Below, piece by piece: positions 1 to 12,160 of a DNA stretch of 40,464 nt. The notes below the pieces were generated by a model that had not been told where the DNA came from, ran no database searches, and was given only the letters and a program-made list of their open reading frames with translations. Location of the stretch: positions 1 through 40,464 of IMG/VR virus record IMGVR_UViG_643348545_000008; one strand, given 5' to 3'. This DNA comes from a virus. Lineage: Duplodnaviria; Heunggongvirae; Uroviricota; Caudoviricetes. The translations under genes and the position numbers were made by a program. The first letter of the stretch is position 1. Each line of letters begins with the position of its first letter.

Positions 1-1131
1 TCAAATGACCAGTTTTTTCCATTCCTTACCGCGTGCGTCGTTGTAAATATCGGTCATTTTTTGATGCGAATGGCCTAGCAAAATTTTGGTATCAACCCCC
101 TGCTCTCTGAACAATCGCTCTGATAAAGATCTCTGCTCATGGAAAGAGGGAGGGGTGCCATTAGCACGCCAGTTGTAATCCACAGAATCCCGGGCTTTTT
201 TAAATGCAACGGTTAATGTTGCTGGCTTAACCATCCCGCCGCGCTTAGCTGTCCCTTTCGCGTGATGGTGGTGCAATAGCCACGGACTAAGAACGCAATC
301 GCGGCAGGATGACACCACATCATCCAGGGTGAGATTTAATTTATCGCAACGCAGAGCCAGAGGGATGGCAATCCGGGTTCCTGTTTTTTGCTGTTCGACA
401 TGAAGATAACCATCCCGGATATCCGAAAATTGCATTTTGCAAATATCTGAAAGGCGCTGGCCTGTCATCAGTGCCAGCAGCATACCGCGCTGTAAAAAGT
501 AACCATCCTTTTCCGCTGCGTTATAAATCATCATCCACTCATCAAAAGTCAGTCGCTGTCTTGATATCCGCACCTGCGGTTTTTTTGCCGATTCTGCAGG
601 GTTAAAGCCTGGCGGGACATCGCCCGTTTGCTGAGCTTCCCGGAAAACATCGATCAGTACTTTCCTGAAAATTTGTCCCATTCTGTTATGTCCTCTGGCC
701 TTGTACTCTTCCAGTACTGATACCACATCTTTTACGGTTATGGCATCTAACGGTCTGGTGCCAAAACGTTCATCAAATACCCTGAGAGGGGCCGCTTTCT
801 GTTTCAGCGTGTTGAGTTTGATCTCGCCGTTTTCATATCTTTCCTGTTGAATTTTTCTGTAATTATTCAGAAAAATGGTAACGGTTGATGAACCGCCGGT
901 ATCACTAATAATTTTCTCCTGCAGACTGAGCATTTGTTCCATTTGCTGCCGGGCAAGACGGCTGTTCGCTTCTGCTGCAATAGTTTCTGCCAGTTTCTGG
1001 TCAATACTGCCGAGACCGTGATTTTTGCCTGTTATGGGATGCCTGTAACGCCAGTAAACTTTGTTATTTCTTTTGTCAAAATACGGAGATAATCCCGGAA
1101 CATCGGTTTTATATTTTCGCGGGCGCGCCAT
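1..1131 (-). CDS. int: Phage tyrosine integrase (376 aa)
   Basis: Full-length minus-strand ORF ending at the window edge. Carries tyrosine-recombinase motifs (TGQRLSDI box; LLGHSHQKMTDIY near the C-terminus). Sits next to an Xis-like gene. Confidence 0.85.
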   Translation of the reverse strand: MARPRKYKTDVPGLSPYFDKRNNKVYWRYRHPITGKNHGLGSIDQKLAETIAAEANSRLARQQMEQMLSLQEKIISDTGGSSTVTIFLNNYRKIQQERYENGEIKLNTLKQKAAPLRVFDERFGTRPLDAITVKDVVSVLEEYKARGHNRMGQIFRKVLIDVFREAQQTGDVPPGFNPAESAKKPQVRISRQRLTFDEWMMIYNAAEKDGYFLQRGMLLALMTGQRLSDICKMQFSDIRDGYLHVEQQKTGTRIAIPLALRCDKLNLTLDDVVSSCRDCVLSPWLLHHHHAKGTAKRGGMVKPATLTVAFKKARDSVDYNWRANGTPPSFHEQRSLSERLFREQGVDTKILLGHSHQKMTDIYNDARGKEWKKLVI

Positions 1132-1421: not shown

Positions 1422-1766
1422 TTAAAAATCAGCCTGATTCGGGATCAGTTTTTGCCAGATAACTGAAACGTATTTTGCCTGGTAACGGGCGTCATCAAGT
1501 GCATTATGGCGCTCACCTTCGAATGGAATAGCCGTTCTGGCATCGAAGTCTATGGCTTTCCCCAGCTCAACGATTGTGCGTACATCGCGATCGTTGTAGT
1601 AACGCCACGGGCAGGGGATCCCCTGCCGTTCGTATGAACGGCGCAAAATCGTGTTGTCGAAGTTGGCTCCATTTCCCCAGACCTGAACAAAAAATTCACC
1701 GGAGTTTTCGTCGATAAATTCCCGCAATTGTAACAGTGCATCATCTAACGGGATTTCATCGGTCAT
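1422..1766 (-). pseudogene. 3'-5' exonuclease (DEDDh/DnaQ-like), N-terminally truncated fragment
   Basis: The 114-aa ORF has Exo II-like (NGANFDNTIL) and Exo III-like (HNALDDARY) motifs but no Exo I (DxE) segment. Its first codon lies 2 bp from the IS1 end, so the 5' part appears to be missing. Confidence 0.55.
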
Positions 1767-1783: not shown

Positions 1784-2287
1784 TTACTGATAGTGTTTTA
1801 TGTTCAGATAATGCCCGATGACCTTGTCATGCAGCTCCACCGATTTTGAGAACGACAGTGACTTCCGTCCCAGCCTTGCCAGATGTTGTCTCAGATTCAG
1901 ATTATGTCGCTCAATGCGCTGAGTGTAACGCTTGCTGATAACGTGCAGCTTTCCCTTCAGGCGTGATTCATACAGCGGCCAGCCATCCGTCATCCATACC
2001 ACGACCTCAAAGGCCGACAGCAGGCTCAGAAGACGCTCCAGTGTGGCCAGAGTGCGTTCACCGGAGACGTGCGCCACAACAGTCCTCCGTATCCTGTCAT
2101 ACGCGTAAAACAGCCAGCGCTGACGTGATTTAGCACCGACGTAGCCCCACTGTTCGTCCATTTCAGCGCAGACAATCACATCACTGCCCGGTTGTATGCG
2201 CGAGGTTACCGACTGCGGCCTGAGTTTTTTAAGTGACGTAAAACCGTGTTGAGGCCAACGCCCATAATGCGTGCACTGGCGCGACAT
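1784..2287 (-). CDS. insB: IS1 InsB transposase frame (167 aa ORF; expressed as InsAB' by frameshift)
   Basis: Protein matches IS1 InsB. It overlaps the insA 3' end as in IS1. Confidence 0.9.
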
Positions 2288-3441: not shown

Positions 3442-3621
3442 ATGAAAAACGCATTGCAGTTTTTGTTTGTTGCGTTCTGGTTGTTCGCATCATGTATGCC
3501 CATCATCTTCACAGCAAGGTATATGGAAAAAATTGATGTTTTGATATTAATGTTTGGACATATAAATGCCCTTTTTTTAGGGGTGTTCATGGCGGTCATG
3601 TGCATTGAATACTGGCGGTAA
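3442..3621 (+). CDS. Small hydrophobic membrane protein (59 aa)
   Basis: Internal ATG preceded by an agggggaa RBS. Two predicted hydrophobic helices. AT-rich gene with an AT-rich upstream region. Confidence 0.35.
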   Translation: MKNALQFLFVAFWLFASCMPIIFTARYMEKIDVLILMFGHINALFLGVFMAVMCIEYWR

Positions 3622-3879
3622 ATACAGCGAACGCCATTGGTTTAGTTGGATATTTACTGTGCCGGACAAAAACGGTTTGCGGGGAAATCTTAGTTAAGTA
3701 GAATAACTGCGGGTGCTTGAGGCTATCTGTCTCAGGCATGAACACCAAAAGGCAGATAGAGAAAAGCCCCAGTTAACATTACGCGTCCTGCAAGACGCTT
3801 AACATTAATCTGAGGCCATATCTATGCGACACATAGAGATTAGCCTCTTACGGACCGAAAGGTCAAGGAGAAGCAGGCT

Positions 3880-4035
3880 ATGAAGCAGCAAAAGGCGATG
3901 TTAATCGCCCTGATCGTCATCTGTTTAACCGTCATAGTGACGGCACTGGTAACGAGGAAAGACCTCTGCGAGGTACGAATCCGAACCGGCCAGACGGAGG
4001 TCGCTGTCTTCACAGCTTACGAACCTGAGGAGTAA
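3880..4035 (+). CDS. hok: Hok/Gef-family type I toxin (51 aa)
   Basis: MKQQKAMLIALIVICLTVIVTALVTRKDLCEVRIRTGQTEVAVFTAYEPEE is a clear Hok/Gef family sequence. A short upstream ORF ends at ATGA overlapping the start. A terminator follows. Confidence 0.85.
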   Translation: MKQQKAMLIALIVICLTVIVTALVTRKDLCEVRIRTGQTEVAVFTAYEPEE

Positions 4036-4105
4036 GAGACCCGGCGAGGGATAAATCCCTCGCCACCTCTGATGTGGCAGGCATCCTCAACGCACCCGCA
4101 CTTAA

Positions 4106-4130
4106 CCCGCTTCGGCGGGTTTTTGTTTTT
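4106..4130 (+). terminator. Intrinsic terminator of the hok transcript
   Basis: cccgc-ttcg-gcggg hairpin followed by tttttgttttt. Confidence 0.6.
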
Positions 4131-4251
4131 ATTTTCAACGCGTTTGAAGTTCTGGACGGTGCCGGAATAGAATCAAAAATACTTAAGTAGCGCGCAGGGA
4201 TAAGAGGGATGGTCCCTTAAAGGGGAGAGCTAATTATCCGGAAGGATTCTG

Positions 4252-4503
4252 ATGATGAACATCGAAGAACTGCGTAAAATTTTTTGTGAAGATGGCCTCT
4301 ATGCTGTGTGCGTTGAAAATGGAAACATTGTTAGTCATTACCGCATTCTGTGTTTGCGAAAGAATGGGGCTGCGTTAATTAATTTTGTGGATGCTCGGGT
4401 CACGGACGGATTTATCTTGCGCGAAGGTGAGTTTGTCACTTCATTACAGGCACTGAAAGAGATCGGAATAAAAGCAGGCTTTTCAGCTTTTGCAGAAGAA
4501 TAA
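4252..4503 (+). CDS. Hypothetical protein (83 aa)
   Basis: ORF with a ggaagga RBS. No family recognised. Confidence 0.45.
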   Translation: MMNIEELRKIFCEDGLYAVCVENGNIVSHYRILCLRKNGAALINFVDARVTDGFILREGEFVTSLQALKEIGIKAGFSAFAEE

Positions 4504-8777: not shown

Positions 8778-8853
8778 GGCCCTTTAGCTCAGTGGTGAGA
8801 GCGAGCGACTCATAATCGCCAGGTCGCTGGTTCAAATCCAGCAAGGGCCACCA
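8778..8853 (+). tRNA. tRNA with CAT anticodon, closest to E. coli tRNA-Ile2 (ileX/ileY-like; formally Met/Ile)
   Basis: 76-nt cloverleaf with GGCCCTT/AAGGGCC acceptor stem, anticodon loop CTCATAA, TTCAAAT T-loop and encoded CCA. Confidence 0.8.
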
Positions 8854-8862
8854 TATCACATA

Positions 8863-8939
8863 CCGCCATTAGCTCATCGGGATAGAGCGCCAGCCTTCGA
8901 AGCTGGCTGCGCGGGGTTCGAGTCCTCGATGGCGGTCCA
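8863..8939 (+). tRNA. tRNA-Arg (anticodon TCG)
   Basis: 77-nt cloverleaf with CCGCCAT/ATGGCGG acceptor stem, anticodon loop CTTCGAA, TTCGAGT T-loop and encoded CCA. The discriminator base is unusual. Confidence 0.7.
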
Positions 8940-9217
8940 TTATCTGCATTATGCGTTGTTGGTTCTGATGAGTGAATCATTGTCTTTTGAGCAACAGGCT
9001 ATCATATAAGATAGCCTCAGACTTCCTTGTTTATTCTCGCCGGATGCTTCGTAGATATTTGCAGGCATCTGTATGCAGGGGTATTATTGCGGCATATATC
9101 ATCCGGAAAAATAAAAACTACATGCTGATCCGGAGATGATAGTTACAAGTCCTCCCGGATCCCGCATATTTACTATATTTTATAGATAATTGTTCTTGTT
9201 AATATGGAGATGGATAA

Positions 9218-9646
9218 ATGTATTGCCGTGCTGTACCAGTTCTTGTTTTGATATTAGCCAGTCTGACAACTGGCTGCACAAAAGATGTATCGACAAATAA
9301 TTATGATGCTTCTCTGTATCACTCAGATAAATTAATAAAGTCGCAAAATTTGAGCTCATCGGAACGTACCCCTGATGCCAGTGAAGAAATCAGGCAGTAT
9401 GCCATTCAGGTCAGGAAAGCCATAGAAGAACAGTTAAAGGATGCGAGTAAGTATTCAGGAAAAGAGTGTTCACTGAGAATGTATATGGCCCCGAATGGTC
9501 TTCTGCTACAGGTTAAAAGAGAAAGCGGTGATCCCGATTTATGTCGTGAAGCGATGAATGCAGTAAAGAATGCTGATATACCATCACCACCGTCTTCAGG
9601 AGTATATAAAGCATTTAGAAATGGCGTGCTGGATTTTAAACTCTGA
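9218..9646 (+). CDS. Lipoprotein with TolA C-terminal (domain III)-like domain (142 aa)
   Basis: Signal peptide with lipobox-like LTTGC. Residues 55-142 align by eye with E. coli TolA domain III (GKECSLRMYMAPNGLLLQVKRESGDPDLC...IPSPPSSGVYKAFRNGVLDFK versus GKTCTLRIKLAPDGMLLDIKPEGGDPALC...IPKPPSQAVYEVFKNAPLDFK). ggag RBS. Confidence 0.7.
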   Translation: MYCRAVPVLVLILASLTTGCTKDVSTNNYDASLYHSDKLIKSQNLSSSERTPDASEEIRQYAIQVRKAIEEQLKDASKYSGKECSLRMYMAPNGLLLQVKRESGDPDLCREAMNAVKNADIPSPPSSGVYKAFRNGVLDFKL

Positions 9647-10171
9647 CAGGGGGAGAAGATTTTCTCCTGTCCTGATGATTTTGGGGCGCTGGAAAGATAT
9701 TGTGCTGTGAAGTGTTAAATTCCTCACAATTCAGTAAGTTGACAGTTGCCTGTCAGACTGAGCATTTGTTAAAAAAATTTCGCATGGTGAATCCCCCTGT
9801 GCGGAGGGGCGACTGGTGAACGGTATGATCTCTTTGATGATCGTAAGCGAGAATATGCGGGTTTAGTGTCACCGGGCTGAACTCACCGGGAGGCACCCGG
9901 CACCATGCAATGGCACATAGCGCCACTCTCCAGCCCCTCTCCGGAGGGGCTTTCTTGTGGGCAAAAAAAAAGCCCGAGTGGGTTCGGGCAACAGCATGAG
10001 ATATACATTTTTATAATCGAATGGATTTTAACCAGAATTCATAAGGCTGCGCAACTGCGCGGCCTTTTTCGTATTGCGGGCTGTAGTCTTCCTCCTGCCA
10101 TTGTCCTGTAACTTCCGGACTTCAGCCCGCCCCTCATCTGACTCACAACATTATCCCGACCGGGAGGATTC

Positions 10172-12160
10172 ATGACATTTAAACACTACGATGTGGTCAG
10201 GGCGGCGTCGCCGTCAGACCTTGCGGAGCGACTGACACAAAAACTGAAGGAGGGGTGGCAGCCATTTGGCAGCCCTGTCGCCATCACGCCTTATACCCTG
10301 ATGCAGGCCATTGCGGCGGAAGGTGATGTCACCACACCTGTGGTGGTGAAGCCGTCGGATGGAGAAGGCACAGTTATCAGCACCACCAGCGAACCGGAGT
10401 ATTACTTTGTTGTTGTTCTGGCGGGGCAGTCAAACTCAATGTCTTTTGGTGAAGGGCTGCCGCTGCCGGAGACATATGACCGTCCGGACCCGCGTATTAA
10501 ACAGCTGGCGCGTCGCAGTACGGTGACGCCGGGTGGTGCCGCCTGTAAATATAACGACATCATTCCGGCAGACCACTGTCTGCATGATGTGCAGGATATG
10601 AGTAACCTGAATCATCCTGAAGCGGACCTTAATAAAGGGCAGTACGGTTGTGTGGGGCATGCTCTGCATGTTGGCAAAAAGCTGCTGCCGTTTATGCCTG
10701 CGAATGCGGGTATCCTTCTTGTTCCATGTGGCCGTGGCGATTCGGGATTTACTGCGGGGGCCGAGGGGGCGTTTAACGCAGCGTCGGGAGCGACCGCAGG
10801 CTCGTCCCTGTGGGGGGCGGATAAACCGCTGTATTATGACCTGGTCAGCAGAACCCGTGCGGCCCTGAAGAAAAATCCGAAGAACGTGCTGTTATCAGTG
10901 ATCTGGATGCAGGGAGAAAAAGATGTCAGTTCGGGGAGACATGCAGAACACAATGCGCTTTTCCTTGCCATGGTAAATCAGTTCCGTACGGAACTGGCAG
11001 ATGTGGCAGAGCAGTGTACTGGCGGGACAACGGCCAGCGTCCCGTGGATTTGCGGTGATACCACGTACTACTGGAAGGAAAGGTATGCAGCGCCGTATGA
11101 GGCGGTTTACGGTGGGTATAAAGGCAAAGCTGCGCAGAATATTCACTTTGTGCCGTTGATGACGGATGAGCATGGTGTGAATGTGCCGACAAACGAGCCG
11201 TCAGAAGATCCGGACATTATCCCGGCGGGATACTATGGCGCTGCGTCACGCACTGCCAGTAACTGGACGTCAGCCGATCGTAAAACGCACTTCAGTTCAT
11301 GGGCGCGAAGAGGCCTTGTTTCAGACCGCCTGGCAGGTGCCATTTTGCAGTACGCCGGGCGGACATTATCGTTCCTTACCGGGCAGAGCGCACCGCAGTC
11401 GGGTGGTACAACTCCCGGTGATGATGTCAGTCCGGGGGTACCGGGTGTTGAGAAACCGCAGGATGGCGGTGTTGCTGGTACTGGTCATGATGAGGCCGTG
11501 AGCAGTACCAGGACGGTGGCTGAATATGATGCGAACAGTGGAAATGGTGTATGGACAGAGCAGCAGTGGGGGGCTGCCGGTGGCAAAGGCACTGTGACTG
11601 ATGACGGTGGACGGAAAGCGCTGCGACTGGAAAAACAGCCCGGTAAACTGACGTCCTGGAAAATGTTCTGTACTGTTGCAGTGGAGGAGGCAAAAAATCT
11701 TCTCAGCAAGGGGGGTGAAATTGCCGTACGGTTCAAAATTCCGGACGGAAGCGAACTGGTGAACGGACAGTTTGTCTTTGGTCTCTACTGGCCGGTGTCG
11801 CAGTGGGCGTCAGGCGCGGCAGCAAACAGTATGCTGGCATCATTCTTCCTTCAGACGGATGCATCAAATCTGAATCTTATGCACCACAAGGGCACGTCGA
11901 ATGCACAACTGGGTACATTTGGTGCGTTTGACCATAACTGGCATACGGTTGTTTTCCGCTTTGCGGGAAATAACAGCGAAAGAGTCGTTCCGGTGATTGA
12001 TGGTACAGAGCAGACGGCGTTTGACCTTGTGATGTGGACAAATGATGGCTTTACAGCAGATACGCTGACGCTGACAGATATCACGGGGGCAAAAGCGACG
12101 TATCCGGTACTGCTTGATACGGTCACAGTCAAAGTTAACGAAAGCCGGGCATCATCATAA
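10172..12160 (+). CDS. nanS-p: Prophage sialate O-acetylesterase, NanS-p-like (DUF1737 N-terminus + SASA esterase domain, 662 aa)
   Basis: N-terminal MTFKHYDVV...GWQPFG module. VVLAGQSNSMSFGEG serine-esterase motif. gggagga RBS. Sits between the Q-tRNA region and the lysis genes, as nanS-p does in Stx-type prophages. Confidence 0.75.
   Translation: MTFKHYDVVRAASPSDLAERLTQKLKEGWQPFGSPVAITPYTLMQAIAAEGDVTTPVVVKPSDGEGTVISTTSEPEYYFVVVLAGQSNSMSFGEGLPLPETYDRPDPRIKQLARRSTVTPGGAACKYNDIIPADHCLHDVQDMSNLNHPEADLNKGQYGCVGHALHVGKKLLPFMPANAGILLVPCGRGDSGFTAGAEGAFNAASGATAGSSLWGADKPLYYDLVSRTRAALKKNPKNVLLSVIWMQGEKDVSSGRHAEHNALFLAMVNQFRTELADVAEQCTGGTTASVPWICGDTTYYWKERYAAPYEAVYGGYKGKAAQNIHFVPLMTDEHGVNVPTNEPSEDPDIIPAGYYGAASRTASNWTSADRKTHFSSWARRGLVSDRLAGAILQYAGRTLSFLTGQSAPQSGGTTPGDDVSPGVPGVEKPQDGGVAGTGHDEAVSSTRTVAEYDANSGNGVWTEQQWGAAGGKGTVTDDGGRKALRLEKQPGKLTSWKMFCTVAVEEAKNLLSKGGEIAVRFKIPDGSELVNGQFVFGLYWPVSQWASGAAANSMLASFFLQTDASNLNLMHHKGTSNAQLGTFGAFDHNWHTVVFRFAGNNSERVVPVIDGTEQTAFDLVMWTNDGFTADTLTLTDITGAKATYPVLLDTVTVKVNESRASS

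Follow-up and report, generated by a model that had tools for sequence, protein, structure and literature searches.

How can an antisense-controlled toxin gene keep its translational switch when the upstream frame that is meant to work that switch ends on the toxin's own start codon? The question is raised by a hok/sok-type locus in a 40,464-nucleotide (nt) Caudoviricetes record (IMG/VR IMGVR_UViG_643348545_000008), which was analyzed at its full length and is referred to here as the window. An earlier note, made from the letters of the window, had read positions 3790-4130 as a Hok/Sok-type type I toxin-antitoxin locus in a nin-like region, and this reading is borne out by a HokD-identical toxin, an Rfam leader match, a tac/fbi fold-back, a mok-type open reading frame (ORF), and a minus-strand promoter followed by a terminator hairpin. 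From these sequence features we regard the locus, with high confidence, as a type I toxin-antitoxin cassette of the hok/sok family, complete in its parts and of the hokD/hokW lineage, carried in the nin-like part of a defective lambdoid prophage. It is wider than first drawn, spanning about 3677..4131: it begins roughly 110 nt further upstream, with a promoter at 3677..3704 and an mRNA 5' end near 3709-3711. Cassettes of this kind are already known as hokD/hokW-type hok/sok in Escherichia coli lambda-like prophages, and the find carries little weight as a discovery, since hok/sok is a textbook type I system, the sequence is present in many E. coli genomes, and hokW-sokW has been dissected experimentally. 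Modestly new are only two points, a polymorphism that places the upstream frame mok in all three reading frames relative to hok, and a natural allele in which mok is minimal.

The toxin gene occupies 3880..4035 on the plus strand, exactly where it had first been placed, and encodes a membrane toxin of 51 amino acids (aa; MKQQKAMLIALIVICLTVIVTALVTRKDLCEVRIRTGQTEVAVFTAYEPEE). The product covers the whole of the HOK_GEF profile (Pfam PF01848, positions 1-42 of 42) with an E value of 1.2e-23 and 82.9 bits against a cut-off of 22, and it is identical at 51 of 51 residues to HokD of E. coli K-12 (b1562, formerly RelF), which identifies the gene as a hokD allele. RefSeq labels the identical locus hokD (WP_000813254.1) and leaves mok, sok and both promoters unannotated; placing these elements for an allele where hokD alone is annotated is one practical use of the present analysis. 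When overexpressed, the HokD coding sequence is reported to induce cell lysis (bioRxiv 10.1101/2025.08.07.668861). The coding sequence also contains, at Tyr47, a TACG motif (4018..4021, plus strand) of the kind at which TadA performs adenosine-to-inosine editing, recoding Tyr to Cys in K-12 hokC, hokD and hokE (PMC5630033). Because the coding sequence of the window is identical to that of K-12 hokD, its Tyr47 codon should be editable likewise; a short local fold around the site was no better than those of shuffled sequences.

What lies upstream of the toxin was approached with an Rfam scan of the whole window, a covariance-model search of the kind that the earlier note had proposed as a check. 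The scan matched RF01794 ('sok') over its full model (1-157), scoring 106.7 bits (gathering score 59; E value 2e-23); the match lies on the plus strand at 3711..3882. We rejected the reading of this match as the antisense RNA itself, given that it shares the strand of hok and has its end at the hok AUG, as is also the case in the Rac, mEp460 and R1-like plasmid loci (L002, L003 and L004 checked). Because both properties hold in each locus tested, RF01794 is a model of the hok leader containing the Sok complement, and its match gives the wrong strand for the antisense RNA. The matched segment is the 172-nt leader of the hok mRNA.

The full-length hok mRNA is predicted to run from 3709 to 4127 on the plus strand (about 417 nt), its 5' 'tac' element GCGGGTGCTTGAGG (3709..3722) pairing with a 3' 'fbi' element CCTCAACGCACCCGC (4085..4099). 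We infer the 5' end from the start of the Rfam model (3711) and from the reach of the complementarity (3709). In the minimum free energy (MFE) fold of 3711..4127 (-168.7 kcal/mol, z -8.59 against 100 shuffles) the first 12 nt pair with CCUCAACGCACCC near the 3' end, and a repeat search, which extends the pairing of the two ends to 3709, recovers the same arrangement as an inverted repeat (I3, 3704-3716 with 4092-4104, 92% complementary). It is this tac/fbi fold-back that keeps the full-length R1 hok mRNA inert (PMC1635323). Upstream lies a putative, weak hok promoter at 3677..3704 on the plus strand, composed of a -35 element TTGCGG (3677..3682), a 16-nt spacer and a -10 element TAGAAT (3699..3704). 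The same TTGCGG-16-TAGAAT arrangement is found in a hokW locus (L125), and the distance from the -10 element to the GGGTGC 5' end equals that of hokW (TAGAAT), hokC (TATAAT), hokB (TAGGAT) and an R1-like plasmid (TATGAT). At the other end, the stem-loop and T-run that had been noted as an intrinsic terminator at 4106..4130 are present at 4104..4131 on the plus strand, with a stem of 7 bp, of which five are GC pairs, and a TTCG loop (AACCCGC-TTCG-GCGGGTT, 4104..4121), followed by TTTGTTTTTA.

Between hok and the fbi element stands a perfect 10-bp hairpin (4043..4064, plus strand; GGCGAGGGAT/ATCCCTCGCC; inverted repeat I6, 100% complementary). In R1 the mature mRNA ends past a hairpin at the corresponding position, as judged from primer hok R of PMC1635323 and from alignment A3, and by this comparison the window hairpin is likely to be a road-block that sets the 3' end of a processed, active mRNA of about 358 nt. 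In a truncated RNA of this kind (3711-4068) the 5' end is predicted to refold into a local 9-bp hairpin. As a separate observation, a 15-nt inverted repeat with 80% complementarity joins the leader (3791..3805) to hok codons 7-11 (3898..3912). This pairing may be a counterpart of the R1 upstream and downstream complementary boxes (ucb/dcb), and is absent from the MFE structure.

The antisense RNA can be placed on the minus strand by homology, as can its promoter. The earlier note had expected a Sok-like RNA to be encoded on that strand around 3790..3880 and could not locate its promoter with confidence. The strand was right, but the position was not: only the promoter lies there, at 3837..3866, and the RNA itself maps to about 3756..3830. 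The promoter consists of a -35 element TTGACC (3866..3861), an 18-nt spacer and a -10 element TAATCT (3842..3837). It was placed by homology with R1, sokB/sokC and sokW, aligning positionally with TTGCGC-17-TATCCT of R1 and TTGCCT-17-TAACCT of hokW, and those variants in our survey of related loci (described below) that have a recognizable sok promoter all carry the hexamers TTGCCT or TTGACC with TAACCT or TAATCT. By our own reading of primer YO-421 (PMC8621323), the 'pro-less' construct, which exposed the toxicity of HokW, carries its mutation in the -10 element of sokW (PMC8621323), and the -10 element of the window occupies the same position.

The RNA that would start from this promoter is about 70-75 nt long and consists of a 5' tail (3830..3818), a stem-loop (3817..3766) and a U-tract (3765..3762). 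The tail, 13 nt of predicted single strand (GUCGCAUAGAUAU), is complementary to the mok AUG region. The predicted fold of the whole RNA has -31.7 kcal/mol (z -5.2), with UUUU following the stem-loop. Both ends are anchored by known relatives: in a five-leader alignment K-12 sokC and sokB, as annotated, both have their 5' end at window position 3830 and their 3' end at 3756, and the 5' end of R1 Sok, ACUAGACAUAGGGAUGCCUC according to the primers with which it was synthesized in vitro (PMC1635323), maps to the same place as theirs. R1 Sok measures 64 nt (PMC1635323); the RNA predicted for the window is longer because its hairpin is longer, and its size agrees with the 71 nt over which sokW pairs (PMC8621323). 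The predicted sok gene would have its own promoter, a 5' tail and a terminator stem-loop.

The element on which the opening question turns, mok, lies exactly where the earlier note had read it. It is a frame of 19 codons on the plus strand (3824..3883; MRHIEISLLRTERSRRSRL), an ATG with 18 further codons and a TGA, and its stop (3881..3883) overlaps the hok start codon as ATGA. Being shorter than 20 aa, it was omitted from the automatic ORF list and was read directly. Its start region forms the predicted Sok-target hairpin (3812..3847, plus strand), with an outer stem of GAGGC (3812..3816) and GCCTC (3843..3847), an inner stem (3821..3826 with 3832..3837) and a CGACA loop (3827..3831). The mok Shine-Dalgarno (SD) sequence GAGG (3812..3815), 8 nt upstream of the mok ATG, sits in the outer stem, which is paired in 68 to 69 of the 69 distinct relatives. 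Among these relatives no block varies more than the inner stem and loop, and a hairpin is still predicted in most variants; this hypervariable block (3817..3842) covers mok codons 2-7 as well as the Sok tail. Further downstream the frame runs through a second hairpin (3845..3870, plus strand), in which, according to the MFE fold, an anti-SD sequence CTCTT (3845..3849) pairs with the hok SD AAGGAG (3865..3870) around a GGACC-GAAA-GGTC stem. Its parts TAGCCTCTTAC and CAAGGAGAAG are conserved in the window, hokW and the R1-like locus. Consensus folding of the 69 distinct leaders was tried as a source of covariation and rejected, the relatives being too alike and the variable hairpin misaligned, and our claim of covariation is limited to the Rfam score; the sole clearly compensatory pair in that fold is 3725:3757, which changes from A-U to G-C in 13 sequences.

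It could be argued that so short a frame is untranslated and without a role, that hok is translated from its own SD, and that Sok acts only through RNase III decay of the mRNA. The hok SD is a good one, 9 nt from the AUG, the Mok peptide is unconserved and its frame varies, and a 2026 survey of Hok diversity leaves Mok out, its authors calling it hard to define. Nevertheless, almost every relative retains the mok ATG and the GAGG SD upstream of it, at a constant position within the Sok-complementary hairpin, and a conserved anti-SD masks the SD of hok. In R1, hok translation is reported to require mok translation (Thisted and Gerdes, 1992, as cited in PMC4147584), and Sok pairs with the initiation region of mok, not of hok. 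We consider a locus in which mok plays no part very unlikely.

Why the frame ends where it does becomes apparent by comparison with its relatives. The mok of Rac is annotated at 68 codons and overlaps hok; aligned with Rac, the window shows a gap of 2 nt directly behind the mok ATG, and because this gap shifts the frame, mok stops on the hok AUG. In mEp460 mok reads in the frame of hok owing to a separate 1-nt indel, and the result is an extended Hok of 70 aa. These are not isolated cases. We surveyed IMG/VR loci that share the hok start, of which 119 stretches were found, and classed them by how far the mok ATG lies upstream of the hok ATG. The commonest offset, at 82 loci, is 57 nt, which is in frame with hok. 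The 56-nt offset of the window occurs at 12 loci, including the window and an identical copy (L001), and the 58-nt offset of the R1/Rac type at four. A further 11 loci were missed by the SD pattern; at least seven of these are a further 57-nt variant and two are relE-hokD junctions like that of K-12. Two indel sites explain the frame classes, one in the loop of the mok hairpin and the other in the GGACC/GGTC stem within the spacer of the sok promoter. Among the chromosomal loci of K-12, mokC and hokC have one common stop, the mokC start lying 57 nt upstream of that of hokC; mokB, of 55 codons, begins 58 nt upstream of hokB and ends within it.

One side observation belongs here. On the IncFII plasmid NZ_CP128973.1 (L004), at 344..559, the mok ATG is in frame with hok at the 57-nt offset, and the sole RefSeq annotation is a 'Hok family toxin' truncated to 33 aa (458..559). 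The full Hok of this plasmid is identical to what we take to be the R1 Hok sequence. Judged by its sequence, mok frame polymorphism is thus present in R1-type plasmid loci as well. We rejected this locus as the canonical R1 system, in view of its in-frame mok and of published primers that give a differing hairpin loop in true R1 (PMC1635323), and it served for the conserved parts only.

Because close relatives carry mok in all three frames, the variation suggests that selection acts at the level of the RNA, on its structure, promoter and antisense target, together with the act of translating the leader, rather than on the Mok peptide. A bolder form of this proposal, on which we are evenly divided, is that mok is free to lie in any frame and its peptide is irrelevant. 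A 57-nt offset would then yield an N-terminally extended Hok, a 58-nt offset a long overlapping frame, and a 56-nt offset a 19-codon peptide ending at ATGA. The window would represent a 'minimal mok' that has arisen in nature, with hairpin melting and termination-reinitiation as its sole means of coupling to hok, and the hypervariable hairpin at 3817..3842 would be a specificity determinant that insulates the several hok/sok copies of one genome from each other. If the window allele is fully functional, it offers a clean natural test of the coupling of mok and hok, and the frame variants at large are natural alleles for testing the mechanism.

Is the allele functional, or is it a relic? A number of points count against a working locus. 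The 19-codon mok is a minority form, with the 56-nt offset seen in only about 12 of the roughly 100 sampled loci, and in the literature we found no description of this class and no experiment on it. Both promoters were positioned by homology, and in a generic promoter scan neither the hok nor the sok promoter rose above threshold, both being weak matches to consensus; that of sok has an 18-nt spacer and only three of six matches in its -10 element. According to Pedersen and Gerdes (1999; cited in bioRxiv 10.1101/2025.08.07.668861), the chromosomal loci hokA, hokB and hokC do not bring about post-segregational killing. The transcription of Sok, the translation of mok and killing by the window locus are all predicted activities, and the part in prophage induction shown for hokW-sokW of the Stx2 prophage Sp5 is unlikely at this locus because the host prophage is without its immunity and replication region.

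The main rival explanation draws on several of the same points. It holds that the cassette is complete but silent, the 2-nt difference after the mok ATG being a frameshift that leaves hok translation uncoupled or weakened, with the result that no killing ensues. The reduction of mok to 19 codons, from 68 as annotated in Rac or 70 in the in-frame form, would fit such decay, as would a defective prophage with an IS1 element beside int. Yet the new frame ends exactly on the hok AUG, where it is fit for reinitiation, and ribosomes reading it would still cross the anti-SD hairpin. The hok gene, both promoters, the tac/fbi pair and the Sok terminator are intact, and each of the three mok frames is found in loci that are otherwise intact, among them hokW (57 nt) and R1 (58 nt), whose activity has been shown by experiment. 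The allele is also widespread. Some match to a 551-nt query spanning the locus was found in 4,938 of 5,426 complete E. coli genomes; among the matches listed, the top E. coli chromosomes are 100% identical over the 551 nt and carry an annotation for hokD only. Over the 91-nt stretch 3800..3890, the best match has at least 99% identity in 777 E. coli records, and because of this the window allele is not a private mutation. In the phage collection the locus goes under the labels MokW, Hok, HokD, gef and 'host killer'. Taking both sides together, we think a silent relic unlikely.

If the complete cassette is instead a working one, its mechanism can be proposed from the R1 and Sp5 paradigms. The full-length hok mRNA would be inert, locked by the tac/fbi fold-back, until slow trimming of its 3' end to the hairpin at 4043..4064 frees the 5' end and refolds the leader, giving the active mRNA. 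As long as Sok is made, its tail would bind the mok initiation region and block the translation of mok, and hence of hok, the duplex being cut by RNase III. Once the unstable Sok is no longer made, ribosomes would translate mok, melt the anti-SD hairpin and start on hok, whose 51-aa peptide would depolarize the inner membrane. In the 19-codon allele the coupling could do without a long overlapping frame, because mok ends on the hok AUG (AUGA), and would proceed by hairpin melting and termination-reinitiation.

The K-12 chromosome holds the closest counterpart of the toxin, and in a rearranged setting. At hokD (relF) of the Qin prophage, Hok is the same at 51 of 51 residues, the DNA hardly differs over the stretch that takes in the hok SD, fbi, the terminator and rem, and the neighbors rem, DUF968/YdfU and Q are shared with the window. 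Upstream of the hok SD, however, the promoter, tac, mok and sok have been replaced by relBE in Qin, whereas the window keeps them. K-12 hokD is without antisense control because of this replacement, and the window shows the form of the locus before relBE took the place of its control region.

The nearest relative studied by experiment is hokW-sokW, of prophage Sp5 and 933W-like phages, with about 90% DNA identity. It likewise lies in a lambdoid prophage between early genes and Q, and has the same leader, tac/fbi pair and Sok hairpin, the last with an extra GCGTCC..GACGC insert. The two differ in the mok of hokW, which is in frame at the 57-nt offset, the sokW probe sequence fitting the CTCAATCCATGCTGAAC variant, in the sok promoter (TTGCCT-17-TAACCT against TTGACC-18-TAATCT in the window), in the sequence of the Sok tail and target loop, and in the C-terminus of Hok. 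HokW is toxic, and it is neutralized by sokW expressed from its own promoter in a manner partly dependent on RNase III and Hfq (PMC8621323).

The R1 hok/sok system (parB) is more distant in sequence and the same in plan. Every element of the window has a positional homologue there: the geometry of -10 and +1, the tac/fbi pair, the hairpin holding the mok SD and AUG, the anti-SD/hok SD hairpin, the Sok promoter inside mok, the Sok 5' tail and terminator hairpin, and the 3' road-block hairpin. In contrast, R1 mok has about 70 codons and overlaps hok out of frame at a 58-nt offset, as reconstructed from published primers, compared with 19 codons in the window. The coding sequence of R1 Hok is only partially similar to that of the window (alignment A3), and HokW and R1 Hok share 44% identity (PMC8621323). 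The settings also differ, R1 being a plasmid and the window a prophage. The leaders of K-12 hokC/mokC/sokC and hokB/mokB/sokB can be aligned with that of the window and place the ends of Sok at the same positions, but with mok in the other two frames (57 nt for mokC, 58 nt for mokB) where the window uses the third (56 nt). Overall, the mok of R1, Rac and hokB extends over most of hok, and that of hokC, hokW and most phage copies is in frame with it; in hokB, Rac, hokC and mEp460 the frame measures 55-70 codons.

The surroundings of the cassette agree with the placement in a nin-like region that the earlier note had given it. Downstream follow rem (4252..4503), a DUF968 protein, RusA, Q, a DNA methylase, tRNA-Met, tRNA-Arg, STnc100 and AsxR, an arrangement of the Stx-type lambdoid phages. 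On the upstream side, an integrase gene (1..1131), a 3'-5' exonuclease fragment (1422..1766) and an IS1 transposase gene (1784..2287), all on the minus strand, form a block that abuts the nin-like region directly. Between the integrase and hok we found no repressor and no replication genes (none of cI, cro, O or P), and no early promoter was found in the window. Because these genes are missing between the integrase/IS1 block and the nin-like region, the prophage is very probably defective, its immunity and replication region apparently lost.

This setting bears on what such a cassette might do for its carrier. A role other than prophage addiction is conceivable, either in lysis and phage release upon induction, as for hokW-sokW, or in abortive-infection defense, as for R1 hok/sok against T4. 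In Sp5, hokW-sokW is activated on RecA-dependent induction, during which sokW disappears; it speeds growth arrest after mitomycin C, aids lysis and doubles phage release (PMC8621323), and R1 hok/sok is reported to lower T4 plating (as cited in PMC8621323). Sp5 is inducible, however, whereas the window prophage is seemingly defective, with only the exonuclease fragment and IS1 between int and hok, and the 2026 survey found no enrichment of hok near defense systems. We treat these roles as a tentative, less probable possibility, and none of them would change the identity of the locus.

Beyond the cassette, a few features of its surroundings deserve mention. The late region at 8778..12160 is Stx-phage-like, with tRNA-Met, tRNA-Arg(tcg), the small RNA STnc100 (9753..9962), AsxR (9967..10019, minus strand) and a NanS-p-like esterase (10172..12160). 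By what we take to be the usual gene order of Stx phages, the site expected for stx is occupied here by a 142-aa ORF with a TolA C-terminal domain (9218..9646). The generic promoter scan, run over 3550..4300, returned a single sigma-70-like site, TTGAAG-18-TAGAAT at 4144..4173, between the hok terminator and rem. Lastly, two near-identical 11-mers flank the cassette, TAGTTAAGTAG (3691..3701), which overlaps the hok -10 element, and TACTTAAGTAG (4180..4190); as two short copies, they possibly mark the boundaries of a module or may have arisen by chance.

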